DNA from: a virus
Lineage: Duplodnaviria; Heunggongvirae; Uroviricota; Caudoviricetes
IMG/VR virus record: IMGVR_UViG_2695420576_000002
Location: 1-12,124 of that record
Reading direction: 5' to 3' (one strand)
Length of the DNA stretch: 12,124 nt
Part shown: positions 1 to 12,124 of the stretch, piece by piece
How the letters are laid out: each line of letters starts with the position of its first letter
Numbering within the stretch: position 1 is the stretch's first letter
Notes under the pieces: generated by a model
Seen by the model: the letters and a program-made list of their open reading frames with translations, nothing else
Databases searched by the model: none
What the model was told of the DNA's origin: nothing
Position numbers and translations under genes: made by a program

Positions 1-558
1 GTGCCAACGTTGGCACATTTGGGAAAAGCCAAACTTTTCGAATTAATGACAGAAGACGACGAAGAGCTTGCCGAACTGGCCGACGGCGGCACAGTTGCCG
101 GCCTGACGCTTGACGACGTTGATCGCATGTCAGTACGTGAATTGCGTCAGGCCCTGCGCGAAGCGCGCGAAACCAACGCAGCACAACAGCGCGTACTCGC
201 TGACAAAAATGAAAAAATAGACTCACTCTCCACCAGACTGGAGAAGAAATCCCGTATTCAGCCGCCTGAGCCTGATGAAGAGGTTAAGAAGCTGCGGGCG
301 GAAGTGACAGCATTAGCGGTTGAGGCGGAATCTGCTATCGCCGTTCGACTGTCCAGCGCTTTTGAGACGCTGTGCGCATATTGTGCTGAAAACATGATTG
401 ATACCCCCAGAGACTTCATGGCAGGCCTGGTCTGTCAACTGGAAAGCACAGCGCGTAGCCTGCGCTCCACATTTGACCTGCCGGATGAGCCAACAGGCAA
501 TGCCGCGCCTTCATGGCTGACTGAGCCGACGCCACAGATTAACGGGCTGGAGGCATAA
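1..558 (+). CDS. hypothetical phage early protein, 5' partial (reading frame open to the window edge)
   Basis: ORF runs from base 1 to TAA at 556-558. The transposase ATG follows 4 bp later with GGAGG at 548-552, so it is co-oriented with the transposase operon. Acidic N-terminal part and coiled-coil-like middle; no family recognised. True start is probably upstream of the window. Confidence 0.5.
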   Translation: MPTLAHLGKAKLFELMTEDDEELAELADGGTVAGLTLDDVDRMSVRELRQALREARETNAAQQRVLADKNEKIDSLSTRLEKKSRIQPPEPDEEVKKLRAEVTALAVEAESAIAVRLSSAFETLCAYCAENMIDTPRDFMAGLVCQLESTARSLRSTFDLPDEPTGNAAPSWLTEPTPQINGLEA

Positions 559-561
559 CCA

Positions 562-2331
562 ATGAATGCTGCCCTGACTGAACGACTGGTTTATGTCGCC
601 CGCGCGGCACGTGACGCGGGGCATGGTAAACGCGGTGCAATATACGACGCTGCCTGTGCTGAACTTGGCATGTCCCGCGCCACTCTGCTGCGCAGGCTGA
701 AGGAGGTCTCTGTGACTGATAAACGCAAAAAACGCGCTGATGCCGGACGCAGCGCCCTGACCCGCGACGAAGCCGCGCTGATATCTGCCACACTGCGTGA
801 GGCCACCCGCAAGAACGGTAAGCGTCTCTATTCCATCGCGGATGCAGTGGAAACCCTGCGGGCTAACGGCTTTATCTCCGCAGGCAGAACAGATGAAACC
901 ACCGGTGAGTTTTTCCCGTTGTCCGAAGATGCCATCAGTCGTGCCCTGCGTAACTATGGCCTGCACCCGGAACAACTGGATGCTCCTGCGCCGCATACCG
1001 AAGTGGCCAGTCTGCATCCCAATCATGTCTGGCAGATTGATGCCTCGCTCTGCACGCTTTACTACCTGAGCAATGGACACAAAGGGCTGCAGGTGATGGA
1101 CAGCGCGAAGTTCTACAAGAACAAACCCGCTAACCTTGCCCGTATCGCCAGTGACCGCGTGTGGAGTTACGAGATTACCGACCATGCCAGCGGCTGGATT
1201 TACGTTGAGTATGTGACGGGTGCGGAATCCGGTGAGAACCTGTGTTCTGTGCTTATCAACGCCATGCAGGAGCGTGGCGGCGCAGACGTGCTGCACGGCG
1301 TGCCAAAAATACTCTATCTCGACCCCGGTTCGGCAAACACCGCGGGTATGACGAAAAACATGTGCCGCTCACTGGGCATTGACCTGATAGCGCACAAGCC
1401 GCATAACGCCCGCGCCACCGGACAGGTGGAAAAGGCGCGTGACATTATCGAACGCAAGCTGGAGCCGGGTCTGAAGTTCCGGCCGGTTCACAGTCTGGAA
1501 GAACTCAACGCGCTGGCCGCGAAATGGCGCAGCCACTTTAACGCCACGGCTGTTCACAGCCGCCACGGTAAAACCCGCACGGATATCTGGCTGAAGATTA
1601 CTGCTGAGCAGCTGAAAAAAGCGCCTTCCGTTGAGGTATGTCGTGAACTGGCTGTGGCGGCACCAGAACTCCGCAAAGTCACGCCAAAACTTCGTGTCTC
1701 GTTCCGGGGCACTGAATTTGACGTATCAACGGTACCGGGCGTACTGGTTGGTGAAAAACTGATGATTACCCGTAACCCATGGCGCAGCGATGTGGCACAG
1801 GTGGTTCTGACCGGTGAGGACGGCCACGAGACGTTCTTCCTGGTCGAAGAGGTCAGAAAGAACGAGTTTGGCTTTGCTGAAGGCGCGGCGGTATTTGGCG
1901 AAAGTTACAAAGCCCTGCCGGAAACCCCGGCACAGATGGCGGCAAAAGAAACCGAAGCGCTGGTTACCGGTACAGACAACGCCGCAGATGCAGCCGCCGC
2001 ACGCAAGGCGAAGGCGCTGCCGTTCGGCGGGCGGCTTGACCCGTATAAACATATCGACGACACCACACTTCCGGCCTATATGCCGAAGCGTGGTCAGGCC
2101 TCTGACGTACGCGGGCCGCGCACTGAACAACGTCCCATGACTCATGTGGAGGCCGCGAAAGCCCTGCGCGATAAGTTCAGCGCCGACGGCCTTACCTGGA
2201 CGCCGGAACATTACCGCCAGTTAACGGCACAGTACCCGGACGGCGTACCGGAAGCCGCACTGGATGAAGTCATGGCCACGCTGACCACACCGGCCCGCAG
2301 CAGTGTTATCAGCATTGTTAACGGCAACTGA
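562..2331 (+). CDS. DDE transposase, Mu A-like (retroviral-integrase superfamily), 589 aa
   Basis: ATG at 562 with GGAGG 10 nt upstream. Candidate catalytic triad D160 (HVWQIDAS), D254 (LYLDPGS), E290 (TGQVEKA), giving the classic 35-36 residue D-to-E spacing. N-terminal region looks HTH-like. Shorter than MuA (663 aa) and unlike the MuA sequence as recalled. Confidence 0.85.
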   Translation: MNAALTERLVYVARAARDAGHGKRGAIYDAACAELGMSRATLLRRLKEVSVTDKRKKRADAGRSALTRDEAALISATLREATRKNGKRLYSIADAVETLRANGFISAGRTDETTGEFFPLSEDAISRALRNYGLHPEQLDAPAPHTEVASLHPNHVWQIDASLCTLYYLSNGHKGLQVMDSAKFYKNKPANLARIASDRVWSYEITDHASGWIYVEYVTGAESGENLCSVLINAMQERGGADVLHGVPKILYLDPGSANTAGMTKNMCRSLGIDLIAHKPHNARATGQVEKARDIIERKLEPGLKFRPVHSLEELNALAAKWRSHFNATAVHSRHGKTRTDIWLKITAEQLKKAPSVEVCRELAVAAPELRKVTPKLRVSFRGTEFDVSTVPGVLVGEKLMITRNPWRSDVAQVVLTGEDGHETFFLVEEVRKNEFGFAEGAAVFGESYKALPETPAQMAAKETEALVTGTDNAADAAAARKAKALPFGGRLDPYKHIDDTTLPAYMPKRGQASDVRGPRTEQRPMTHVEAAKALRDKFSADGLTWTPEHYRQLTAQYPDGVPEAALDEVMATLTTPARSSVISIVNGN

Positions 2332-2341
2332 GGAGGGAAAC

Positions 2342-3508
2342 ATGCTGGTACTGAAGCAGCAACTGAAAGAGGCCCGTATTCCACAGGCGGTGGTGGCGAG
2401 AGCTGTCGATGTTTCTGAGGCCACGCTGGCCCAGATTGTGAATCATAACGCGTGGCCCCGCACCAGCCCCGGAGAAGTGCGCCGGCGTCTTGCGTCCTGG
2501 CTGGAAAGTCAGGGGATTGATACAACGAAGAGTTTTGATGCTGTACAGGGCGCGGCCACGCCCCGTACAGCGGGTACCACAGATAAAACGAGCCTCAGTG
2601 AGGAAGAGAATATGTTACTCAAAAAACAGGTGTTATTTCCAGCAACCAAAAAAGCGTTTGGTCTTTTCCGTGACCCGTTCGCCGACGAAGCCATGCAGGG
2701 TTCTGATGATGTGTTCACCACCCCGGATATTCGCTACGTGCGTGAGGCGTTGTACCAGACAGCCCGTCATGGTGGGTTTATGGCCGTCATCGGTGAGTCC
2801 GGTGCGGGTAAATCCACGCTGCGCCGCGACCTGACTGAACGTATCAACCGCGAGAATGCGCCGGTAATTGTTATCGAGCCATACATCATCGCTATGGAAG
2901 ACAACGATGTGAAAGGGAAAACCCTGAAGGCAGCAGCGATTGCCGAAGCCATTATCAGTACCATCGCACCACTGGAAAGCATCAGACGCAGTCAGGACGC
3001 CCGCTTTCGCCAGTTGCATCGCGTCCTGAAAGACAGCAGCCAGGCGGGGTTCAGCCACGTTCTGGTGATTGAGGAGGCCCACAGTCTGCCCATTCCGACA
3101 CTGAAACACCTCAAACGCTTTTTTGAGCTGGAGTCCGGTTTCAAAAAACTGCTGTCCATCGTGCTGATTGGCCAGCCGGAACTGGCGACAAAACTGTCTG
3201 AACGCAATATGGAAGTCCGTGAAGTCGTTCAGCGCTGTGAGGTGGTCGAACTTCTGCCTCTGGACAATAACCTTGAAGAGTTTCTGACGTTCAAACTGCA
3301 ACGGGCCGGTAAACAACTGACGGACATTATGGACGCCAGCGCAGTGGATGCCATACGTGCCCGCCTGAGCAATCCGGGAAGTCATCGTAAAAATATGGTC
3401 AGCCTGCTGTATCCGCTGGCCGTCAGTAACCTGGTAATAGCCGCCATGAATCTGGCCGCTGAAATCGGGGTTCCACAGGTCAACGCTGACGTTGTCAAAG
3501 GGGTTTAA
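2342..3508 (+). CDS. transposition target-DNA activator ATPase, Mu B-like AAA+ protein, 388 aa
   Basis: Start chosen at ATG 2342 (AGGAGGG at 2331-2337) rather than the ORF-track start at 2303. Walker A GESGAGKST and Walker B-like VLVIEEAH. N-terminal HTH-like segment. Sits directly after the transposase, as B does in Mu. Confidence 0.8.
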   Translation: MLVLKQQLKEARIPQAVVARAVDVSEATLAQIVNHNAWPRTSPGEVRRRLASWLESQGIDTTKSFDAVQGAATPRTAGTTDKTSLSEEENMLLKKQVLFPATKKAFGLFRDPFADEAMQGSDDVFTTPDIRYVREALYQTARHGGFMAVIGESGAGKSTLRRDLTERINRENAPVIVIEPYIIAMEDNDVKGKTLKAAAIAEAIISTIAPLESIRRSQDARFRQLHRVLKDSSQAGFSHVLVIEEAHSLPIPTLKHLKRFFELESGFKKLLSIVLIGQPELATKLSERNMEVREVVQRCEVVELLPLDNNLEEFLTFKLQRAGKQLTDIMDASAVDAIRARLSNPGSHRKNMVSLLYPLAVSNLVIAAMNLAAEIGVPQVNADVVKGV

Positions 3509-3510
3509 TA

Positions 3511-3780
3511 ATGAAATCCACCACAGGTATCAACCAGCAAATCAGCAAAGTGCAGTCAGCCATTATGGCGCTTAAGGCGACGAACACGGATGTACAAAGC
3601 ATCACCATCAGGGGTAACAAACCTGTCATCCGCGTTTCCCGGAGTGCGCATTGCATGCGCATGCTTGAGCAGGGAAAGGCCTGTTATCTGTATACCGGTC
3701 ATGACCACAGGGGACATTTCCGTCAGGGCGTTTTCGAACTGCACGGCTGTCGCGTCGTGTGGCCGGAATCTTTGTGGTAA
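3511..3780 (+). CDS. hypothetical small protein (89 aa)
   Basis: ORF starts 3 bp after the B stop, same strand, within the operon. No recognisable motifs. Confidence 0.45.
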   Translation: MKSTTGINQQISKVQSAIMALKATNTDVQSITIRGNKPVIRVSRSAHCMRMLEQGKACYLYTGHDHRGHFRQGVFELHGCRVVWPESLW

Positions 3781-3807
3781 TCAGCACAACAGGAGGAGTC
3801 ATAAAAT

Positions 3808-4338
3808 ATGGCAAAAAGTACAAAAGGGGCAAAACGTATCAAAGCCGCAGCAGCACTCTGGGTGCCGGGGACACGCGAAGAGGTCATTGAGGGAATCAGA
3901 CTGCTTGGTGACGCGCAACGTGAACTGGTCAGGGCTGAAACAGAAATGAATGACACCATTGGCGACATCACTGCACGTTATGCCCCGCTCACCGAGAGCC
4001 TGAAAAAACGCATGGCCGAACTGCAGTCCGGTATCCAGACATGGTGTGAGGCGCACCGTGATGAACTGACCGGCAACGGGAAGGTGAAGTTCGCTAACCT
4101 CACCACCGGCGAGGTGCAGTGGCGAAACCGTCCGCCGTCAGTCAGCATTCGCGGGGCGGATAATGTCATTGAACTGCTGAGACGTCTGGGGCTTGAGCGC
4201 TTTATTCGTGTAAAGGAGGAAATAAATAAAGATGCCATTCTGAATGAAAAAGAGGCTGTGAAAAATATTCCCGGTATTACCATAAAAAGTGATATTGAGG
4301 ATTTTTCAATAATTCCTTTTGAGCAGGATGTGCAGTAA
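3808..4338 (+). CDS. gam: Gam-like host-nuclease inhibitor / DNA-end-binding protein
   Basis: 176 aa. AGGAGG at 3791-3796. The translation closely resembles Mu Gam as recalled, including the C-terminal IEDFSIIPFEQ segment and internal segments such as ETEMND, RPPSVSIRG and RFIR.KEEINK. Confidence 0.85.
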   Translation: MAKSTKGAKRIKAAAALWVPGTREEVIEGIRLLGDAQRELVRAETEMNDTIGDITARYAPLTESLKKRMAELQSGIQTWCEAHRDELTGNGKVKFANLTTGEVQWRNRPPSVSIRGADNVIELLRRLGLERFIRVKEEINKDAILNEKEAVKNIPGITIKSDIEDFSIIPFEQDVQ

Positions 4339-4380
4339 ACACACCACGTTAATTATTTAATAAAAACATTTTCTTTTTTA

Positions 4381-4417
4381 TTCCGGCGTCAGCGCCGCGG
4401 GCTTCTGCACGCCGGAA
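4381..4417. repeat. perfect 9-bp inverted repeat TTCCGGCGT / ACGCCGGAA around a 19-nt GC-rich spacer
   Basis: Read directly from the gam to zinc-ribbon intergenic region. Preceded by a T-rich stretch, followed by the RBS and ATG at 4436. No U-tract after the stem, so it is not a classic intrinsic terminator. Confidence 0.6.
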
Positions 4418-4435
4418 ACAGAGGAGAATTAAATT

Positions 4436-4630
4436 ATGATATTTAAATGTATTCAGTGCGAGAGGGATATAACAGCCCTGCGTTTTCACAGCGCCATCGC
4501 CGTGATGTCCGGTAAGTATCACATACCTGCAGTACGTGTCACCCTGGTCTGCCCGTACTGCAGCCAGCATTTTTCGGCGGACGTGCCCGTCATGGAATTC
4601 TCCCGCCCTGACAGGGAGGACGCGCAATGA
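4436..4630 (+). CDS. zinc-ribbon protein (CxxC...CxxC), 64 aa; possibly an Ogr/Delta-like or Com-like regulator
   Basis: C5/C8 and C39/C42 pairs. N-terminus MIFKCIQC resembles the Ogr/Delta start MFHCPLC as recalled. RBS AGGAG lies upstream of the ATG at 4436. Confidence 0.5.
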   Translation: MIFKCIQCERDITALRFHSAIAVMSGKYHIPAVRVTLVCPYCSQHFSADVPVMEFSRPDREDAQ

Positions 4631-4899
4631 TTACCCCACAGGAAGCACGACAGCGCACCCGAACTCTTGTTGAACACTATGTCAACGAGTGTGAATGCCG
4701 CGACCTCACCGATGTGAAGCACGTCCTGACGGCGCTAATCAGCATGGCCACACAGGCCATTGTGGCGACCAACGGAAAGGAGGCTGCCCTGCAGGTACTG
4801 ATGAACACACTCACCCACACGGCAGAGCATGAGGTGCCGTACCGGATGGAAACCACTGCAGAAGGCGGCCTGCACATCACCGTCAGCCGGAAGCACTGA
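4627..4899 (+). CDS. hypothetical protein (90 aa)
   Basis: ATGA start/stop overlap with the upstream ORF at 4627-4630, suggesting translational coupling. RBS AGGGAGGA upstream. No family recognised. Confidence 0.45.
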   Translation: MITPQEARQRTRTLVEHYVNECECRDLTDVKHVLTALISMATQAIVATNGKEAALQVLMNTLTHTAEHEVPYRMETTAEGGLHITVSRKH

Positions 4900-4908
4900 G
4901 GGCGCGGC

Positions 4909-5205
4909 ATGACACGAAACACCGAACTCACCCGCACCGCCCTCTACCGTCTGGCCCTGCAGCGTTTCGGGCCGGACGCACAGGCCCTGAAACTGGCAGA
5001 AGAGGCCGCTGAACTGGCGGCCAGTGCCGCCCGCAACCTGAACGGACAGGGCAGCGAAAGTGACCTCGCGGCAGAGCTGGCAGACGTGGAAATCATGACA
5101 GAGCAACTGCGCCTTCAGGGGATGGACCGGCTGATTGACTTCCACAAACAGAAAAAACTGGAACGTCTGGCTGCACGACTGGGCGTGATTTACACGAACG
5201 AGTAA
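4909..5205 (+). CDS. MazG-like nucleotide pyrophosphohydrolase family protein (tentative), 98 aa
   Basis: About 100 aa and helical. Acidic motifs LAEEAAELA and ELADVEIM are spaced like the EExxE and ExxD metal-binding motifs of small MazG-type NTP pyrophosphatases. Assigned from motifs only. Confidence 0.45.
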   Translation: MTRNTELTRTALYRLALQRFGPDAQALKLAEEAAELAASAARNLNGQGSESDLAAELADVEIMTEQLRLQGMDRLIDFHKQKKLERLAARLGVIYTNE

Positions 5206-5219
5206 CCGGGAGGCATTCA

Positions 5220-5435
5220 ATGGCTGACATACTCAGGGAAATCACCGCATGGACACTGATTCTTACTGGCCTGGCGACATGCCTCAGTGCGGGGGCAGCC
5301 CTGGCTGCCCTGCTGATGCACATAACAACACAGTGGTTATGGGAAAAGCTTAAAGCAGCATACAGCCTGAAAGAGCTGTCCGACGCTGTCCGGGCATGGA
5401 AACGGCAGAAAAATACCGGAGATACAGAACAATGA
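5220..5435 (+). CDS. small membrane protein (71 aa, one predicted transmembrane helix)
   Basis: Hydrophobic segment WTLILTGLATCLSAGAALAALLM followed by a charged C-terminus. RBS GGGAGG upstream. Confidence 0.4.
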   Translation: MADILREITAWTLILTGLATCLSAGAALAALLMHITTQWLWEKLKAAYSLKELSDAVRAWKRQKNTGDTEQ

Positions 5436-6115
5436 CAGACCAGAATAAACACATTGAGAAACTGAAAAAGTTGCTGGCGCTGGCCGCATCCGGCAACCCG
5501 CACGAGGCCGCTCTGGCACTGCGCCGAGCCCGTAAACTGATGGATGTTCACGGCATCACACATTCCGACATTGCTATGAGTGATATTGATGAAACCATCA
5601 GTCACTACTGGCCGACAGGCAGTCTCCGTCCACCGCGCTACATGCTGGGCCTGATGAACATCATCCGCGAGGTATTTGGTGTTAACTCCATCATTCACCC
5701 CGGCACGCATCCGTCTGTGGGGTTCTACGGCAACCGGGAACGTGCGGCACTGGCTGCATACACCTGGGAAGTGCTGGCCCGTCAGCTGAAAAAGGCGCGT
5801 CAGCAGTATATCAGTGCACAGAACAAAAGAATAAAAACCGCCACCCGCACCAGCCGTGGAGACCAGTTTGCCGAAGGCTGGGTGCTGGCCGTTATCAGTG
5901 AAATACAGTCCTTTGCCCTGACCGATGATGAGCGTGAACTGATGCAGCAGTGGCTGGAACATAAATACCCGCAGACGCAAACCACCAGGGCGCGTAAACC
6001 GGGAAGAAGCCGCAATGGCGACGCCTCGCGCTATGCGGGGTTTCGTGAAGGGCAGAACGTCAGACTGCACCGCCCGGTCAGTGGGCAGGAACAACAGAAA
6101 CTGGAGGCCAGATGA
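5432..6115 (+). CDS. DUF2786-like phage protein, 227 aa
   Basis: Start chosen at ATG 5432 (ATGA overlap with the preceding stop, GGAGA upstream) rather than 5396. N-terminal IEKLKKLLALAASGNPHEAALALRRARKLM matches the conserved N-terminal signature of the DUF2786 family as recalled. Confidence 0.55.
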   Translation: MTDQNKHIEKLKKLLALAASGNPHEAALALRRARKLMDVHGITHSDIAMSDIDETISHYWPTGSLRPPRYMLGLMNIIREVFGVNSIIHPGTHPSVGFYGNRERAALAAYTWEVLARQLKKARQQYISAQNKRIKTATRTSRGDQFAEGWVLAVISEIQSFALTDDERELMQQWLEHKYPQTQTTRARKPGRSRNGDASRYAGFREGQNVRLHRPVSGQEQQKLEAR

Positions 6116-6342
6116 TTACGCTATCAGGTAAAAGCCGGAAATTAAAAGCCTGCCGAATATCTGCCAGATACCTTTTTGCCCGCGCCTTTTTTAAGAACGT
6201 CAGGCCGGGGATCACAATTGGTGTTATTGCCGGACGCGAACAGGTTGAAAAATACATGTCAGGTGCATGGTGGAATAACGACCCTGTCATTGCTGCCCGT
6301 AATATTCATATCGAATGGGGAGGTATTCAGAATGACTACTGA
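6112..6342 (+). CDS. hypothetical small basic protein (76 aa)
   Basis: ATGA overlap with the upstream stop and GGAGG at 6103-6107. However the 5' half is AT-rich and contains a palindrome and T-runs, so part may be regulatory rather than coding. Confidence 0.3.
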   Translation: MITLSGKSRKLKACRISARYLFARAFFKNVRPGITIGVIAGREQVEKYMSGAWWNNDPVIAARNIHIEWGGIQNDY

Positions 6343-6538
6343 AACCATTGTCTGTTTTCTTTTCTGGTATATGTACGCAGGATCATGCAGCGCAAGACTT
6401 CATCGTTCCCTGGGCTATGGCAGGCACTACGACACCGCGCATTACATCCTGTACATGACCGCCGTCATGTTGTTCTGGCCAGTCACCCTGCCAGCTGCAA
6501 CCGACATTGTTGCCGACAGACTGAAAAAAAGGAGATGA
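6331..6538 (+). CDS. small membrane protein (69 aa, two hydrophobic segments)
   Basis: ATG at 6331 with GGGGAGG at 6316-6322. Hydrophobic stretches IVCFLFWYMYAG and ILYMTAVMLFWPVTL. Confidence 0.4.
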
Positions 6539-6539
6539 T

Positions 6540-6989
6540 ATGCAGAAAAAACGCCTGATACAGCTTATCCATATTGCCCGTAATGAACTGGGTATGGATG
6601 AAGACACCTACCGCCAGATGTTACAGGGGCTGACCGGTAAAGCCTCAACCAAAGGAATGGATACCACACAACTAAACTGCGTGCTGGAATCCATGAAAAA
6701 GAAAGGCTTTCGCGTTAAACCAGCCAGAAAAGCCAGCTCCGGTTTACCGCTTGATAACCATCCGCAGTCCAGGAAAATTCGTGCGCTATGGCTTGAAATG
6801 GCTGCTGCCGGCATTGTTCGTGACCGTTCAGAAAATGCATTAGCGAGGTGGATCAAGCGGGAAACGGGCATCAGCGCCCTGCGCTGGCTCAGTACTGAAC
6901 AGGCAAGCAGTGTTATTGAGAAACTGAAGAAGTGGCAGCGCAGAGCTGCGGGAGTCAAACATGAGCGACCTGAATCAGTTTCGAAGTAA
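6540..6989 (+). CDS. gemA: GemA/gp16-like regulatory protein (DUF1018 family)
   Basis: 149 aa. The translation matches the gp16 family pattern as recalled (LIQLIHIA...L.GLTGK.S...M...QL..VLE.MK..GF). GGAG upstream of ATG 6540. Sits immediately before the mor-like gene, as in Mu. Confidence 0.7.
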   Translation: MQKKRLIQLIHIARNELGMDEDTYRQMLQGLTGKASTKGMDTTQLNCVLESMKKKGFRVKPARKASSGLPLDNHPQSRKIRALWLEMAAAGIVRDRSENALARWIKRETGISALRWLSTEQASSVIEKLKKWQRRAAGVKHERPESVSK

Positions 6990-7350
6990 GGGGCCGGAAC
7001 TCCTGGTGGAACTGGCACAGCATACCTCTGAGACCGTTCGCGAGATTATTGATATTGAGCCCGAAGTTGCCGACCAGATTGGTCAGGCCGTCGCGAACCG
7101 AATGATGCAGGTCTGGGGCGGGCAAAACGTTTATTTCCCGATGGGCATGGTATGGAAGGTCAGTCAGCGCGACCGGGAAATCTTCAGGGAGTTTAACGGA
7201 CGCAACCACCACGAACTGGCCCGCAAATTTGGTGTTTCGCTTCAGTGGGTCTACAGCGTGGTTAAGCGGGTAAGAAAAGAAGAACTGGATCGGATGCAGG
7301 GCAAGCTATTTGCTGATGAACCCGATGCAGATACGGAGAAAAAAGAGTAA
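6961..7350 (+). CDS. mor: Mor-like middle-operon transcriptional activator
   Basis: 129 aa, the same length as Mu Mor. C-terminal HTH region FNGRNHHELARKFGVSLQWVYSVVKR resembles the Mor/C family. Last gene of the early operon. Overlaps the gemA 3' end by 29 bp. Confidence 0.8.
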   Translation: MSDLNQFRSKGPELLVELAQHTSETVREIIDIEPEVADQIGQAVANRMMQVWGGQNVYFPMGMVWKVSQRDREIFREFNGRNHHELARKFGVSLQWVYSVVKRVRKEELDRMQGKLFADEPDADTEKKE

Positions 7351-7511
<161 letters not shown>

Positions 7512-7673
7512 CAAATACGGCAATCCCGACGATGGGGATCAGCGCCAGCACGGTAGCAACGGCCTGTACGCGGGTGATCATTTTCGGACCGACAATGTTC
7601 AGCAGGACGAAGATCCACAGCACCACGACGCAGGTGATGGTTAATACCAATGGATCTTTCAGAATCGGGAAGA

Positions 7674-7734
7674 AGTAACTTAAATATCTAACTTAAATAT
7701 CCTACGCCAAAGTAACTTAAATATCCTACGCCAA
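7674..7734. repeat. nested direct duplication within adiC: 22-bp unit TAACTTAAATATCCTACGCCAA at 7689-7710 and 7713-7734, plus a 13-bp partial copy at 7676-7688 (net +37 bp)
   Basis: Read directly from the sequence. Relative to the expected single copy encoding IGVGYLSYF, the extra 37 bp shifts the frame and creates a TAG stop (translation ...[15 protein letters not shown]). Confidence 0.8.
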
Positions 7735-7735
7735 T

Positions 7736-7777
7736 GACCACCATGGCGATATTGCCGACCACCATGGCGATATTGCC
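7736..7777. repeat. perfect 21-bp tandem duplication GACCACCATGGCGATATTGCC x2 within adiC (in-frame repeat of GNIAMVV)
   Basis: Read directly from the sequence. The - strand translation shows [13 protein letters not shown] where native AdiC, as recalled, has a single NIAMVV. Confidence 0.85.
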
Positions 7778-8074
7778 GATCCAGCAGGCCAGCCAGTAGA
7801 GGACGTTGGTTTGATAACCGAGAAACGGGCCAAAGCAGCGGCGGGCGTAAGCGTAAGAACCACCAGGACTTGGGTCGAGGAACGACATTTTGGCGTATAC
7901 CATCGAGAGCCCCAGCGCACCGATAATCGTCACCAACCATCCATAAATAGCAATCCCGCCAGTGGAGGCCAGGTTTGCAGGTAACAGAAAAACACCTGAC
8001 CCCATAATATTCCCCGACACCATCAGGGTGACGGGGATTAAGCCCACTTTGTGAGCATCAGCATCCGAAGACAT

Positions 8075-8210
8075 AATTAAACTCCTGCGAAGGCGAGCTT
8101 CGTGACAATAAATTACGTCATATCATACGCCTGCATTCGATAGTTGAATTATTATCGGCCGGGTTATCGCTGATGCCGTTATTAATATAGCTCTTCGTTA
8201 AGGTTAAAAA
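8075..8210 (-). promoter_or_regulatory. adiC upstream region (promoter and 5' UTR, with a small hairpin CGAAGCTCGCCTTCG just upstream of the RBS)
   Basis: Intergenic region between the adiY stop and adiC start. Assigned by position only; no -10/-35 elements were confidently identified. Confidence 0.3.
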
Positions 8211-8972
8211 TCAGGCGACAGTGCGTTCTCTGTGCTGACTAACATAATGCAGCGGCGTCATACCGTAGAAGTCTTTAAAGACAGAAATAAAGTACGACGT
8301 ACTGTTGTAGCCGCAGGACTGTGATACCTGAGAGATATTTTTACCGTCCATCATTAATTCATTTACGGCATAACGCATGCGGCAGGTGGTGATTATTTGG
8401 CTATAACTGGTGTTTTCGCTTTTCAGCTTTTTCTTTAACAGACTTGGGCTAAGACATAAACAACTGGCTACCATACTAAGATTCCAGTCTTTGTGGATAT
8501 CGCTTTCAATAATTTGATAAACGCTGTCACTTACACAATTACGTAACATATACATCATTAGTGAAAGGAATTTTTTACTGTCGAGAAAACGGGATAGCAC
8601 AGTGAATAATAATGCACGTGTTCGTTCCTTTTCTGACTCAGTTTCAGCGGGCATCATGCTATGCTGCGCGGCAACGCGAAAGACGTCTGGCGTCAGGCAT
8701 GGAAGGGTGAGGATGGGCGTAGCGCTACGTTGCCATACTGGTATTTGCGAGAGATCTTTATTCAGAAACCGGAGGTAATCTTTGATGATGTCGTGACTAA
8801 TATGAGCAACCAAAGTGTTATTAAGAGAGGAGACGTCGATAATATTATTTTCACAATTTAATAACGCCATGTGGTTAGCTTTAAGGCTAATAGGTTCTTT
8901 CCCATTCACCCTTATCCAGACATCTTTTTCAGTCAATAAAACAATACAAGGTTGGTCGCTGCAAATCCTCAT
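8211..8972 (-). CDS. adiY: AraC-family transcriptional regulator AdiY
   Basis: 253-aa translation matches E. coli AdiY as recalled. Conserved synteny adiC-adiY-adiA-melR. Confidence 0.9.
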   Translation of the reverse strand: MRICSDQPCIVLLTEKDVWIRVNGKEPISLKANHMALLNCENNIIDVSSLNNTLVAHISHDIIKDYLRFLNKDLSQIPVWQRSATPILTLPCLTPDVFRVAAQHSMMPAETESEKERTRALLFTVLSRFLDSKKFLSLMMYMLRNCVSDSVYQIIESDIHKDWNLSMVASCLCLSPSLLKKKLKSENTSYSQIITTCRMRYAVNELMMDGKNISQVSQSCGYNSTSYFISVFKDFYGMTPLHYVSQHRERTVA

Positions 8973-9163
8973 ACATGTACTCCTGAGTGCGAATAAAAGA
9001 CCAGTTCTCGCTAAAGCGAAGCGATACCGGGAAATGGTTATATAATTGTATGATGAATATAAACATGCATAAAAATAACGAGTTTTACTAATATTACAAA
9101 TTTTTATAGTAATTTCTCATGTACATATTTTTTTACAGGCTAAAAAAAGGATAAATAACAGGC
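8973..9163 (-). promoter_or_regulatory. AT-rich adiY upstream region (putative promoter)
   Basis: Strongly AT-rich stretch at about 9000-9160 between the adiA terminator and the adiY start. Assigned by position only. Confidence 0.3.
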
Positions 9164-9190
9164 AAAAAAAAGCGCGGGGTGGGACCGCGC
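9164..9190 (-). terminator. rho-independent terminator downstream of adiA
   Basis: On the - strand: 6-bp stem GCGCGG, 7-nt loop UCCCACC, stem CCGCGC, then U8. Lies about 120 bp downstream of the adiA stop. Confidence 0.6.
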
Positions 9191-9307
9191 AAAAAGCATG
9201 ACATTTTTTGTTTGCAGCAATTTTTATGAAAACGTTGCCATACTTAAAAGGCCTCAAGCCAGGCGGCGTAATGTTATTTAACAATTACGCCTTCAGCGGA
9301 ATAGTGG

Positions 9308-11578
9308 TTACGCTTTCACACACATAACGTGGTAAATACCGTCAATAATTTCTGTCCCTTCTGTTTCGTGTTCAAATCCAGGGAAATGATGGTCCCAGGA
9401 TTGCAGCGAGCGTAAATAACTTACTTGCGGACTGTTTTTATCGCCGAAGTTTTCACCAGACAGCAGCATCGGGATTCCTGGCGGATACGGGATAACTGAG
9501 TTTGCCGCGATACGTCCTGGCAGATTTTCAATGGATACCAGTTCGACATTGTTGTCGACAATCGCGTTGTACGCTTCACGCGGGGTGATTTCCGCCACCG
9601 GTAGGCCGGAATAGGCTTCATTCAACCGTGCGCCAGGGTTGTTTTCTTTCAGCCAGGCAAACATGGTGTCACCCAGATCGTGAATCCCCATGTTCGCGTA
9701 AGTGTCAGGATATTGTTCAACAAGTTCCGGCATCACCTGCGCCAGCGGTGTGTTGGCATCATAGTGGCGTTTGAAGGAGCAAAGGGTGTTAACCAGAGTC
9801 CCCCATTTCCCACGGGTCACGCCCATAGAGAACAGGAACATAATCTGGAAGTCAGTGGTACGGGTAGGCACAATGCCGTGGCGACCAAGCCAGGCTGTGA
9901 CCAGCGCCGCCGGAACACCGGTTTCTTCCAGTTCACCATCTTCACCCATTCCCGGAGCAAGGATGCTGACTTTAATCGGGTCGAGCATACTCCAGTTATC
10001 CGGAATATCTTTGAAGCCGTGCCAGCTTTCGCCCGGATGCATGACCCAGCAGTCCTGAACGGTGGTCAGCAGTTTGGTTGGTGCGTCAGCAAAGTCATAG
10101 GTTTTGCCGGTTTGTGGGTCGGTGACGACTTCTTTGTTCCACGGTTTGAAGAACCAGCTACCGTCAGCGGTGAACTCTTTATATAGCCGCGCCATCGCCT
10201 GACGGAAATCAACCGCTTCGTCGATCACTTCCTGGGTCAGTGACAGGCCGCTGTTGCCGTCCATCATCGACACCGCCACGTCGTTGGATGCGCAGATGGC
10301 ATACAGCGGGGAGGTGGTGGCATGCATCATGTAGGCCTGGTTGAAGCGGGAGAAGTTAATCGCCCCACGACCTTCACGTACATGAATATAAGAGGCCTGT
10401 GACAGCGCATTCAGCAGTTTGTGGGTGGAGTGGGTGGCGAAAACGGTAGGACCGTTGTGATCGCCAGGTTCGCCGCGCATGGCATAGTGATCGGCATAGA
10501 TCGGGTTGAAACGTGCATAGCCGTACCAGGCTTCGTCAAAGTGCAGACGATCGGAGGTTTTTTCCAGCAGATCCTGTGCTTCTTTAGCGTTATAACACAC
10601 GCCGTCATAGGTGCAGTTGGTCACCACGCAGTAAGACGGTTTTTGCCCGGCTTTGTCTTTGGTCAGCGGGCTTTCATTGATTTTCTTCTGCAAGGTTTCA
10701 GGTTGCATTTCCTGCGGATAGATTGGCCCGATAATGCCGTAGCGGTTGCGGCTTGGCACCATGTAGACCGGTTTCGCGCCTGTCAGCATCAAGCCTTGTT
10801 CGATGGATTTATGGCAGTTACGGTCAACGACCACTACATCGTTATCGGTCATGCAAGCCTGCATGATGGTGCGGTTAGAGCCGGAAGTACCGACGACTAC
10901 CGACCAGGAGCGATCGGCACCAAATACGCGTGCGGCATATCTTTCGCTTTCGCCAAATGCGCCAGTATGGTCAAGCAAAGAACCGAGGGAAGTGCGTTCG
11001 ATACCCATGTCGGTGCGGAACAGATTTTCACCATAATAGTCATGGTAGAAACGTCCGGCGGGTGTTTTGGTAAAACCAACGCCGCCCTGGTGGCCTGGCG
11101 CTGCCCAGGAATATTCATGGATGTCGCTATATTTCATCAGCGCGCTGAACAGTGGCGGCAATAGCTGCTGGCGGTAGCGGGTCATCGCGGCAACGGCGCG
11201 TCCGGCGATAAAGTCGGCGGTATCTTCCAGAATCCAGGCGAATTCATCGACAAGCTCCAGCAGATCCCGGTCCATTGCGGCGAGGGCTTTTTCCCGATCG
11301 CCCAACAGGAAGACCGGCACGTTTTGTTGGCGCTCATGAAGCTTACCGATCAATTGTCTGACGTTTTGATGTTCGTCCGGATGTTCCATTTGATAGCTGA
11401 ACATCAGGCAGTCAATGGCTTCGTTTGAAGAGAGAATGGCAAAACCATCATCAAAGGAGGTGGATTTAATCACGGTAACATTTTGCTGGCTTAAAGCATC
11501 TGCCAGACGCTCAACGGCGTTACCGACCCAGGTGTCTTGATGGAGAAACTCGCTTTCAACAATTAATACTTTCATCAT
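9308..11578 (-). CDS. adiA: biodegradative (acid-inducible) arginine decarboxylase AdiA
   Basis: Full-length translation matches E. coli AdiA as recalled (MKVLIVESEFLHQDTWVGNAVERLADAL... ending ...IDGIYHVMCVKA). The ORF has tandem ATG codons, so the true start may be 11575 rather than 11578. Confidence 0.93.
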   Translation of the reverse strand: MMKVLIVESEFLHQDTWVGNAVERLADALSQQNVTVIKSTSFDDGFAILSSNEAIDCLMFSYQMEHPDEHQNVRQLIGKLHERQQNVPVFLLGDREKALAAMDRDLLELVDEFAWILEDTADFIAGRAVAAMTRYRQQLLPPLFSALMKYSDIHEYSWAAPGHQGGVGFTKTPAGRFYHDYYGENLFRTDMGIERTSLGSLLDHTGAFGESERYAARVFGADRSWSVVVGTSGSNRTIMQACMTDNDVVVVDRNCHKSIEQGLMLTGAKPVYMVPSRNRYGIIGPIYPQEMQPETLQKKINESPLTKDKAGQKPSYCVVTNCTYDGVCYNAKEAQDLLEKTSDRLHFDEAWYGYARFNPIYADHYAMRGEPGDHNGPTVFATHSTHKLLNALSQASYIHVREGRGAINFSRFNQAYMMHATTSPLYAICASNDVAVSMMDGNSGLSLTQEVIDEAVDFRQAMARLYKEFTADGSWFFKPWNKEVVTDPQTGKTYDFADAPTKLLTTVQDCWVMHPGESWHGFKDIPDNWSMLDPIKVSILAPGMGEDGELEETGVPAALVTAWLGRHGIVPTRTTDFQIMFLFSMGVTRGKWGTLVNTLCSFKRHYDANTPLAQVMPELVEQYPDTYANMGIHDLGDTMFAWLKENNPGARLNEAYSGLPVAEITPREAYNAIVDNNVELVSIENLPGRIAANSVIPYPPGIPMLLSGENFGDKNSPQVSYLRSLQSWDHHFPGFEHETEGTEIIDGIYHVMCVKA

Positions 11579-11773
11579 TGCTTACCCGGTTATGAAGGAA
11601 TCTTCGTTGCGGGCAAGTATCTTCCGGCCTTTTCGGGCTGTAAAGCGCGTGAAAAACAAACATTTTTGAAATATTTATTTTTATAAACAATACGTTATGT
11701 GATTATTTTAAATTATTTTCACTGCTTATTATCGACGGCTAAACTATTTTTTTGGCTGATACTGATATCGTCT
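11579..11773 (-). promoter_or_regulatory. adiA upstream regulatory region (AT-rich, putative acid/anaerobiosis-inducible promoter)
   Basis: Intergenic region between the melR stop and adiA start, with a very AT-rich tract at about 11650-11760. Assigned by position; no specific sites identified. Confidence 0.35.
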
Positions 11774-12124
11774 TTAGCCGGGAAACGTCTGGCGGCGCTG
11801 TTGGCTAAGTTTGCGGTATTGTTGCGGCGACATGCCGACATATTTGCCGAACGTGCTGTAAAAACGGCTACTCGAACGAAAGCCTGCCGTCAGGGCAATA
11901 TCGAGAATACTTTTATCGGTATCGCTCAGTAACGCGCGAACGTGGTTGATGCGCATCGCGGTAATGTACTGTTTCATCGTCAATTGCATGACCCGCTGGA
12001 ATATCCCCATTGCATAGTTGGCGTTAAGTTTGACGTGCTCAGCCACATCGTTGATGGTCAGCGCCTGATCATAGTTTTCGGCAATAAAGCCCAGCATCTG
12101 GCTGTAATGCCGGATCAGTTAAGG
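11774..12124 (-). CDS. melR: melibiose operon regulator MelR (AraC family), 3' part; gene continues beyond the window end
   Basis: Translation ...HVKLNANYAMGIFQRVMQLTMKQYITAMRINHVRALLSDTDKSILDIALTAGFRSSSRFYSTFGKYVGMSPQQYRKLSQQRRQTFPG matches the MelR C-terminal HTH domain as recalled. Lies next to adiA as in E. coli K-12. The ORF-track M at 12097 is internal. Confidence 0.85.

Follow-up and report, generated by a model that had tools for sequence, protein, structure and literature searches.

An apparent BcepMu/B3-type transposition module at the end of a prophage in the adiC gene of Escherichia coli

The stretch of DNA considered here, positions 1 to 12,124 of the IMG/VR virus record IMGVR_UViG_2695420576_000002 (hereafter the window, 12,124 bases in all), comes from an Escherichia coli chromosome, with the end of a prophage at 1-7513 and host DNA from position 7514 onward. 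We consider it very probable that the prophage portion is the early-operon end of a BcepMu/B3-type transposable prophage, essentially PhiKM, located in adiC, and that two adjacent genes within it, designated A and B, are its transposition module. An initial annotation, made from the DNA alone, had described this pair as Mu-type in layout but different from MuA and MuB, and had placed the element in a Mu-like lineage other than that of Mu and D108. As judged from sequence comparison, the module belongs with BcepMu and B3 among the groups that the initial annotation had listed (Mu, D108, B3, D3112, BcepMu and SfMu). The features at the center of this assignment are the following.

562-2331, plus strand: gene A, BcepMu/B3-type DDE transposase of 589 amino acids (open reading frame list, Pfam, PHROGs, BLASTP)
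2332-2337, plus strand: GGAGGG, the apparent Shine-Dalgarno sequence for gene B, directly after the stop codon of A (sequence reading)
2342-3508, plus strand: gene B, AAA+ ATPase (AAA_22, "ExeA family") of 388 amino acids, a proposed MuB analogue (Pfam, PHROGs, BLASTP, hhalign)

Relationships of the A and B proteins

Gene A starts at an ATG (562..2331 on the plus strand in the open reading frame list), and its product matches only one Pfam domain, rve (E 1e-8, with 35.8 bits against a gathering cut-off of 32.6), together with the PHROGs transposase family phrog_310 (E 7.6e-148). The B protein matches AAA_22 (E 3.6e-20) and AAA_16 in Pfam, and the DNA transposition protein family phrog_296 in PHROGs (E 2.2e-93). 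Because of these matches, and because homologues of the two proteins number in the thousands, we take A and B to be real genes rather than chance open reading frames. Their lengths had been given correctly in the initial annotation, as had those of MuA (663 amino acids) and MuB (312 amino acids).

BLASTP aligned 581 residues of A with BcepMu gp09 at 69% identity. The whole of B aligns with BcepMu gp08, at 59% identity, and B is 56% identical, again at full length, to B3 ORF11. A tblastn search with A against 50,697 phage records matched 69 of them, each over the full length of the protein, with the identities to A given below.

PhiKM: 98.8%
Klebsiella phage KP12 and Escherichia phage Phi06_2974 B: 93.7%
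Burkholderia phages BcepMu, phiE255 and relatives: about 69%
Pseudomonas phages B3, JBD25, JD18 and relatives: about 57%
Stenotrophomonas phage phiSHP3: 43%
Two cyanophages: 39-41%
Komp_PAO1_1: 31.5%

Neither Mu nor D108 is among the matches in this set of phage records, in which only two Escherichia records were matched at all. At the DNA level the window shows 98.8% identity to Escherichia phage PhiKM, a member of the genus Bcepmuvirus according to GenBank. This genus also includes phiE255 and Klebsiella phage KP12, and the prophage DNA is 99.9% identical to prophages of complete E. coli genomes. The proposal of a lineage apart from Mu and D108 is thus borne out, and the lineage can be named as that of BcepMu and B3.

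The remaining question with respect to Mu is whether the module might be an orthologue of MuA and MuB (Muvirus: Mu, D108, SfMu) that has diverged merely in length. In favor of this possibility, the order A-B-gam-gemA-mor is that of Mu, MuA and A are both assigned to phrog_310 and MuB and B to phrog_296, and the phage ends are TG...CA as in Mu. As controls, the Mu and D3112 proteins were run through the identical Pfam search. MuA matched DDE_2 (PF02914), HTH_Tnp_Mu_1 (PF02316), HTH_Tnp_Mu_2 (PF09039) and Mu-transpos_C (PF09299) at E values from 1e-15 to 1e-136, MuB matched AAA_22 and Phage-MuB_C (PF09077, E 4.9e-34), and the D3112 transposase matched HTH_Tnp_Mu_1 and Mu-transpos_C. None of the five Mu-specific domains was matched in A or B of the window, Phage-MuB_C, the C-terminal DNA-binding domain of MuB, being absent from the Pfam matches of B, although all five appear in the controls. 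BLASTP gave no match between A and MuA (best E 0.47) or between B and MuB (E 2.4). Neither of the two Escherichia records matched by A is Mu or D108, and, as described below, the element departs from Mu in a target-site duplication of 6 bp instead of 5 bp, in its end repeats, and in an operon that is inverted relative to the end. We regard the orthologue reading as already refuted, with next to no probability left to it, and the initial annotation was right to keep these proteins apart from MuA and MuB.

The orientation of the operon also qualifies the description of the layout as Mu-type. Inside the operon this holds, as the module has, like Mu and D108, an adjacent DDE transposase and AAA+ target ATPase followed by gam, gemA and mor. 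With respect to the phage end the likeness fails: transcription of the Mu A gene leads inward from its place close to the left end, whereas that of the operon in the window runs outward to the nearest phage end, at 7513, and the end-proximal gene is mor, which stops at 7350. The same inverted orientation is found in BcepMu, B3, phiSHP3 and Lsp-JY19, and B3-like phages have been described as having an inverted early operon and transposition proteins unlike those of Mu (PMC5977238). The A and B proteins of D3112 are a more distant pair of the MuA type.

The closest relatives of A outside of the phages are transposases of the IS481 family, and this raises the possibility that A and B are an insertion sequence or transposon, IS481-like or Tn552-like, that landed in the prophage and is not the replication machinery of the phage. 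The IS481 NCBIfam model matches A with 67.2 bits (E 1.6e-18), which is under its equivalog cut-off of 224 bits, and tblastn of A against 72,556 plasmids gave matches of 25-26% identity over residues 30-388, with E values down to 3e-13. The BcepMu transposase is annotated as Tn552/IS1604-like, and passages of the KS10 paper (PMC2628397, citing Summer et al. 2004) describe the transposases of the BcepMu type as belonging to rve and as Tn552-related, and the termini as TG...CA. Like the IS481 transposases (for example rlgA on Salmonella virulence plasmids), A has an N-terminal helix-turn-helix (HTH) region and an rve core, with the D,D-35-E spacing in the last pair of catalytic residues. It differs from them in an extra C-terminal region of 200 residues, in a first D-D gap that is longer by about 35 residues, in working with a separate ATPase, and in moving a phage genome of 37 kb. 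On this evidence A appears to be related to the IS481 family without being a member of it. Several observations speak against an inserted element. A and B hold a fixed place in the operon (DUF3102, A, B, ..., gemA, mor) across phages at 31-57% identity; the TG...CA ends and the duplications bound the whole 37.4-kb prophage and not the A-B pair; and it is the whole prophage, not the gene pair, that is found at different sites. As for Tn552, Staphylococcus is absent from the top ten organisms listed for the plasmid tblastn at E <= 1e-3; the Tn552 p480 protein was not compared directly. We therefore consider an inserted element to be very unlikely.

For gene B, the open reading frame list offers a longer form (2303..3508 on the plus strand, starting at GTG, 401 amino acids) in the same frame as the 388-residue form from the ATG at 2342. 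The GTG start was rejected: GGAGGG precedes the ATG, and PhiKM, RefSeq and the annotated homologues all use the 388-residue form. The ATG sits 10 nucleotides (nt) past the TGA stop codon of A (2329-2331), and the placement of GGAGGG directly after that stop suggests that A and B are translationally coupled. The Walker A motif of B, GESGAGKS, is at residues 151-158 (nt 2792-2815), where the initial annotation had located it, and the Walker B motif, VLVIEEAH, is at residues 240-247 (nt 3059-3082).

The N-terminus of B consists of an HTH region (about residues 1-40) followed by a linker of low conservation (about residues 41-100), and many B homologues of 74% identity carry a precomputed HTH_3 assignment. 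A phmmer search of the PDB with the single B sequence returned only generic P-loop matches. A profile of the B family aligned by hhalign with MuB (E 2.6e-4) pairs residues 12-289 of B with residues 18-213 of MuB, matching the N-terminal HTH of one with that of the other, GESGAGKS with GNPGVGKT, and VLVIEEAH with LVIIDEAD. The initial annotation had viewed the N-terminus of B as an extended, HTH-bearing one ahead of Walker A. The extension is there, as Walker A starts at residue 151 in B and at residue 100 in MuB, but the HTH is not a difference between the two proteins, because the profile alignment matches it to the HTH of MuB; the roughly 50 extra residues before Walker A are a variable linker.

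The name given to B in the databases invites another interpretation, that it is a secretion-related ATPase of the ExeA/GspA type and not a transposition protein. RefSeq calls it an "ExeA family protein", the PhiKM record an "Eha protein", and BcepMu gp08 is labeled "exe/eha type II secretion pathway subunit". The ExeA name, however, reflects the shared AAA_22 P-loop domain and nothing more, and there are no secretion genes nearby. Every phage of the group has B directly after A, with what appears to be a coupled start; the alignment of B with MuB extends from the HTH past Walker B, and phrog_296 is common to both. A role in secretion thus seems hardly credible to us, and we would view B instead as remotely homologous to MuB and analogous to it in function, and likewise to IstB and TnsC.

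The layout of A consists of an N-terminal HTH region (about residues 1-150), the catalytic core (about 150-370), a beta-rich domain (about 370-430) and a helical C-terminus. In the phrog_310 profile the alignment of A begins at column 129 and that of MuA at column 6, and the repressor-operator region is about 8.5 kb from the end in these phages as against about 1 kb in Mu. Together these give a hint, and only that, that A may have no counterpart of the enhancer-binding domain I-alpha of MuA.

Candidate catalytic residues of A

Residues 160, 254 and 290 of A, proposed in the initial annotation as the catalytic triad, are indeed D (within HVWQIDAS), D (within ILYLDPGS) and E (within TGQVEKAR), with codons at nt 1039-1041, 1321-1323 and 1429-1431. 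All three are invariant across 20 aligned family members, down to 33% identity. Invariance by itself cannot settle the triad, because other acidic residues of A (D207, E222, E297 and E301) are invariant in the same alignment, and the choice among them is made instead from comparison with other DDE enzymes. D160 opens the rve match, and its context HVWQIDAS is the usual one for the first aspartate, aligned with "HIWQGD" of a retroviral integrase. The other two positions are placed by three independent alignments. In a phmmer search of the PDB, the A segment "GVPKILYLDPGSANT...ATGQVEKAR" aligns without gaps to "AIPKVIHSDQGAAFT...SSGKVERKN" of the prototype foamy virus (PFV) integrase, with D254 at D185 and E290 at E221. 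The profile of the A family, compared with the PDB, aligns the same segment, also ungapped, with the core of the avian sarcoma virus (ASV) integrase, where the corresponding residues are D121 in "IKTDNGS" and E157 in "MVERAN". In a BLASTP comparison with the MuA-type transposase of D3112, the segment holding D254 and E290 aligns with "GVPAIFYVDNGS...ARGVIER" ("YVDNG...GVIER"). The distance of 36 residues from D254 to E290 is the classical D-35-E spacing; the intervals between successive triad residues are 94 and 36 in A, and 67 and 56 in MuA. These comparisons support D160/D254/E290 as the probable catalytic triad, as had been proposed.

Phage termini and the junction in adiC

A complete copy of the prophage, 37,397 bp long (positions 2038-39434 of the locus extracted from E. 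coli NZ_LR883012), has an early end that is 99.9% identical to window 1-7513. The first two bases of this copy are TG and the last two CA, and the 6-bp sequence GTCACC is duplicated on its two sides. A second complete copy, upstream of ycaL, has the 6-bp duplication GAAGAA. In Mu the target-site duplication is 5 bp. When both termini are read inward, the sequence G(A/C)GATAWWT occurs at positions 12-20 and again at 35-43, and GMGATAWWT is found in the 43-kb locus, on either strand, exactly four times, in each case at position 12 or 35 of one of the two termini. BcepMu has both repeat sites in the same register, while phiSHP3 has the position-12 site together with a GCGATAT variant displaced by one base from the second. 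In B3 both repeats are present as variants, GAGAAATAC and GCGATAAAG, and the attL sequence of Mu is unrelated. The repeats were defined in this analysis and not from the literature, and independent support for them comes only from the shared register in BcepMu and phiSHP3; we infer that they may be binding sites for the transposase. At the end present in the window, the corresponding features are as follows.

7471-7479, minus strand: subterminal repeat 2, GAGATATTT, 35-43 nt from the terminus, putative transposase-binding site
7494-7502, minus strand: position of terminal repeat 1, 12-20 nt from the terminus, GAGATAAAT in all other copies and GAGTTCCGT here
7512-7513, plus strand: terminal CA-3' of the prophage at its mor-proximal end, with the adiC junction next to it (matches to other copies stop at 7513, and alignment with wild-type adiC resumes at 7514)
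7514-7519, plus strand: AATACG, presumed copy of the 6-bp target-site duplication (inferred from the two complete insertions; the other copy would fall outside the window)

The motif GAGATATTT is also matched at 8332-8340 inside adiY, which we treat as chance, as about 0.6 such matches are expected by chance in the window. The copy in NZ_LR883012 sits in a tail gene (NlpC/P60, gpK-like) of a lambdoid prophage, and a copy in NZ_CP025851 carries IS100, of the IS21 family, within a baseplate gene. At the far end of the phage a Gin-like recombinase gene lies beside the tail-fibre genes, as in Mu.

Of 5,426 complete E. coli genomes, 521 contain this phage end, and its insertion sites are many and varied. 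The exact A protein occurs in 575 blocks of the assembly collection, where the ten places listed adjoin ten different chromosomal genes.

With the ends in hand, the likenesses to the known phages can be stated more fully. The element in the window shares with Mu and D108 its TG...CA termini as well as the transposable way of life, but differs from Mu in the duplication length, in the end repeats, in the orientation of the operon and in the absence of the Mu-specific domains from A and B. The expectation that its end sequences would not follow from those of Mu was therefore correct, apart from the shared TG...CA. The likeness to BcepMu extends over full-length proteins, Pfam content (rve only for A, AAA_22 and AAA_16 only for B), operon order and orientation, TG...CA termini, and repeats at 12 and 35; the differences are the host (Burkholderia for BcepMu and E. 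coli here), other accessory early genes, and HU and SSB-like genes where the window has Gam. B3, of the genus Beetrevirus, resembles the element in A (ORF12, 57%) and B (ORF11, 56%), in an inverted operon that ends gemA-mor, and in a DUF3102 gene before A, but it is a siphovirus with other structural genes and with variant end repeats.

The copy in the window departs from the others at its very end. Between the window and the NZ_LR883012 copy there are seven differences over the 7,513 prophage bases, and six of these are within 7491-7499. Because of these six substitutions, terminal repeat 1 reads GAGTTCCGT in place of GAGATAAAT, the canonical sequence at the junction being GTCATTTAT. Of the two repeats expected at a BcepMu/B3-type end, only repeat 2 is present here, a departure that lies in the end and leaves the proteins unaffected. 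If the change is real, the mor-proximal end would probably be unusable by the transposase despite the intact A and B.

It follows that the genes might be intact in a copy that has been immobilised, with the overwritten mor-proximal repeat blocking assembly of A on that end. The clustering of six substitutions at 7491-7499, against a single difference in the other 7,504 prophage bases, favors this view, as does the absence of the variant from all 520 other E. coli copies and from nine further loci. BcepMu and phiSHP3 keep the repeat found at this position, B3 has it in variant form, and A and B of the window are 100% identical to those of another copy. On the other side, the binding function of the repeat is itself inferred, and the cluster could be an assembly or consensus error; three odd microduplications in adiC lie within 300 bp of it. 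Furthermore, the 9-mer that replaces the repeat sequence, CCACGGAAC, is identical to a stretch of adiC on the opposite side of the insertion, and the junction is in no other public record searched. We consider immobilisation of this copy to be unlikely, if by no means far-fetched.

The remnant of adiC next to the prophage is itself unusual. A 37-nt insertion at 7673-7709 is built from a 16-nt and a 21-nt partial copy of the sequence that follows it, and a clean 21-nt tandem duplication, GACCACCATGGCGATATTGCC, is found at 7736-7756. Both insertions disrupt the reading frame of this minus-strand gene and both are within 270 bp of the junction, while the rest of 7514-8200 is 100% identical to several E. 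coli genomes. In wild-type adiC, CCACGGAAC is found 11-12 nt to the left of the insertion point; in the lysogen this adiC sequence should sit about 37 kb away, at the other junction. The patch at 7491-7499 and the microduplications could be a template-switching repair scar of a strand-transfer intermediate, formed during integration, one that locked an intact prophage in place. This interpretation rests on CCACGGAAC having been copied from adiC beyond the insertion site, where it lies almost equally far from the duplication, and on the templated microduplications. We know of no repair footprint of this kind described for this phage group, and we view the scar as a distinctly improbable account; the mundane alternative to it is an assembly or consensus error at the repeat boundary.

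Other public sequences were searched for the same junction. Among complete RefSeq E. coli genomes none has a prophage at this adiC site, and at most 62% of the window is covered by any one complete E. coli genome. A junction 32-mer and a 40-mer spanning the patch were not found in the GTDB representative genomes, nor was the 32-mer found in JGI metagenomes, and none of the ten contigs listed with the exact A protein has the insertion in adiC.

Several points weigh against the reading of this prophage end and its module that we prefer. The alignments that place D254 and E290 are each weak (E about 2e-3 against the PDB, and 1e-6 for the pairwise comparison with D3112). An hhalign comparison of the A family with the MuA family has a probability of only 1.9%; it aligns D254 with D336 of MuA, but it pairs E297 with E392 and misplaces the first D. 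E297 was rejected as the catalytic glutamate, as it is offered by this unreliable alignment, and the ungapped integrase alignments and that with D3112 were preferred. Structure prediction brought no confirmation. An AlphaFold2 model of full-length A, from a 47-sequence alignment, has a mean pLDDT (the predicted confidence score) of 60, with the core at 150-365 below 50, and a model of the core alone has a pLDDT of 41. Neither model is usable as evidence for the fold or for the triad; the alignment lacked depth, having been limited to close homologues (at least 68% identity). A Foldseek search of the PDB with the poor full-length model returned IstA, TnsB and retroviral integrases at TM-scores of at most 0.19, matches that are merely consistent with the DDE superfamily, and MuA is outside the top 50, which is uninformative given the quality of the model. 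The count of four motifs in the 43-kb locus is partly circular, because the motif was derived from those same ends. In the literature searched, in vitro work on a transposase of the B3/BcepMu type was not found, and the copy in the window, without its terminal repeat 1, may be immobile. We nevertheless hold the assignment of window 1-7513 to a BcepMu/B3-type prophage, with A and B as its transposition module, to be very probable.

Neighbouring genes, proposed mechanism and significance

The other genes in the window fit the same operon. All of the prophage genes are on the plus strand, in the order A-B-gam-gemA-mor.

1-558, plus strand: 3' part of a DUF3102-family gene, cut by the start of the window (phrog_1748, E 1.4e-81)
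3808-4338, plus strand: Gam-like protein encoded in this early operon; it would shield DNA ends against the nucleases of the host (Pfam Phage_Mu_Gam, E 1.1e-40)
4909-5205 and 5396-6115, plus strand: MazG-like nucleoside triphosphate pyrophosphohydrolase (phrog_2245) and a DUF2786/DUF7168 protein
6540-6989, plus strand: GemA homologue (Pfam GemA, E 8.3e-41)
6961-7350, plus strand: Mor-family activator of middle/late transcription, the last gene before the phage end (Pfam Mor, E 1.3e-43)
7514 onward, minus strand: adiC (interrupted), adiY, adiA and the start of melR

Genes of the DUF3102 family, encoding about 300 amino acids, are found directly before the transposase gene at window 1-558, at 8993-9904 of the NZ_LR883012 locus, and in two further loci (L003, 6485-7438, and L008, 5066-5992). 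Such a gene adjoins A on its 5' side in every member of the group examined (the E. coli copies, BcepMu gp10, B3 ORF13 and phiSHP3 orf17), and this fixed position suggests an accessory role in transposition or in its regulation. Lsp-JY19, too, has a DUF3102 gene directly before A. Mor is likewise end-proximal in BcepMu, B3 and phiSHP3. The MazG-like and DUF2786/DUF7168 genes of the early operon are kept in the E. coli copies.

Starting from the observed homology, domain content, invariance of the triad positions, termini, duplication length and dispersal, a course of transposition can be proposed. A would be a DDE transposase of the rve fold, in which D160, D254 and E290 would coordinate the catalytic metal ions, and its N-terminal HTH domains would bind the G(A/C)GATAWWT repeats that are found in pairs, 12 and 35 nt in, at both termini. 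A would then pair both ends, nick at the terminal CA-3', and join the ends to target DNA with a 6-bp stagger, while B would coat the target DNA in an ATP-dependent manner and hand it over to A. Gam, GemA and Mor come next in the operon, with transcription proceeding through them towards the nearest phage end. The roles given to A and B in end binding, in target capture and in any target immunity are drawn by analogy from the biochemistry of Mu, IS21 (IstA/IstB) and Tn7 (TnsB/TnsC).

The module is one that was already known. The lineage, with a transposase that is not MuA, was described in 2004, a nearly identical phage (PhiKM) has been deposited, and the phage end is present in about a tenth of complete E. 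coli genomes, so the finding is not a new one. Uninformative names, such as "integrase catalytic domain-containing protein" and "ExeA family protein", nonetheless make it easy to mistake these genes for a novelty, or for MuA and MuB. The distinction matters in that the rules for Mu (the 5-bp duplication, the L1-L3 and R1-R3 sites, and the enhancer near the left end) should not be transferred to these phages, whose ends and duplication length can be read straight from the genomes.

For the host, the prophage interrupts adiC, the gene for the arginine/agmatine antiporter of acid resistance (window 7514-8074), about 500 nt into its 1,338 nt, and leaves adiY and adiA intact. The insertion knocks out adiC, and the strain should be without arginine-dependent acid resistance. 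While it opens no new question, this second family of phage transposases would be a reasonable experimental system for the study of end recognition, target choice and immunity.

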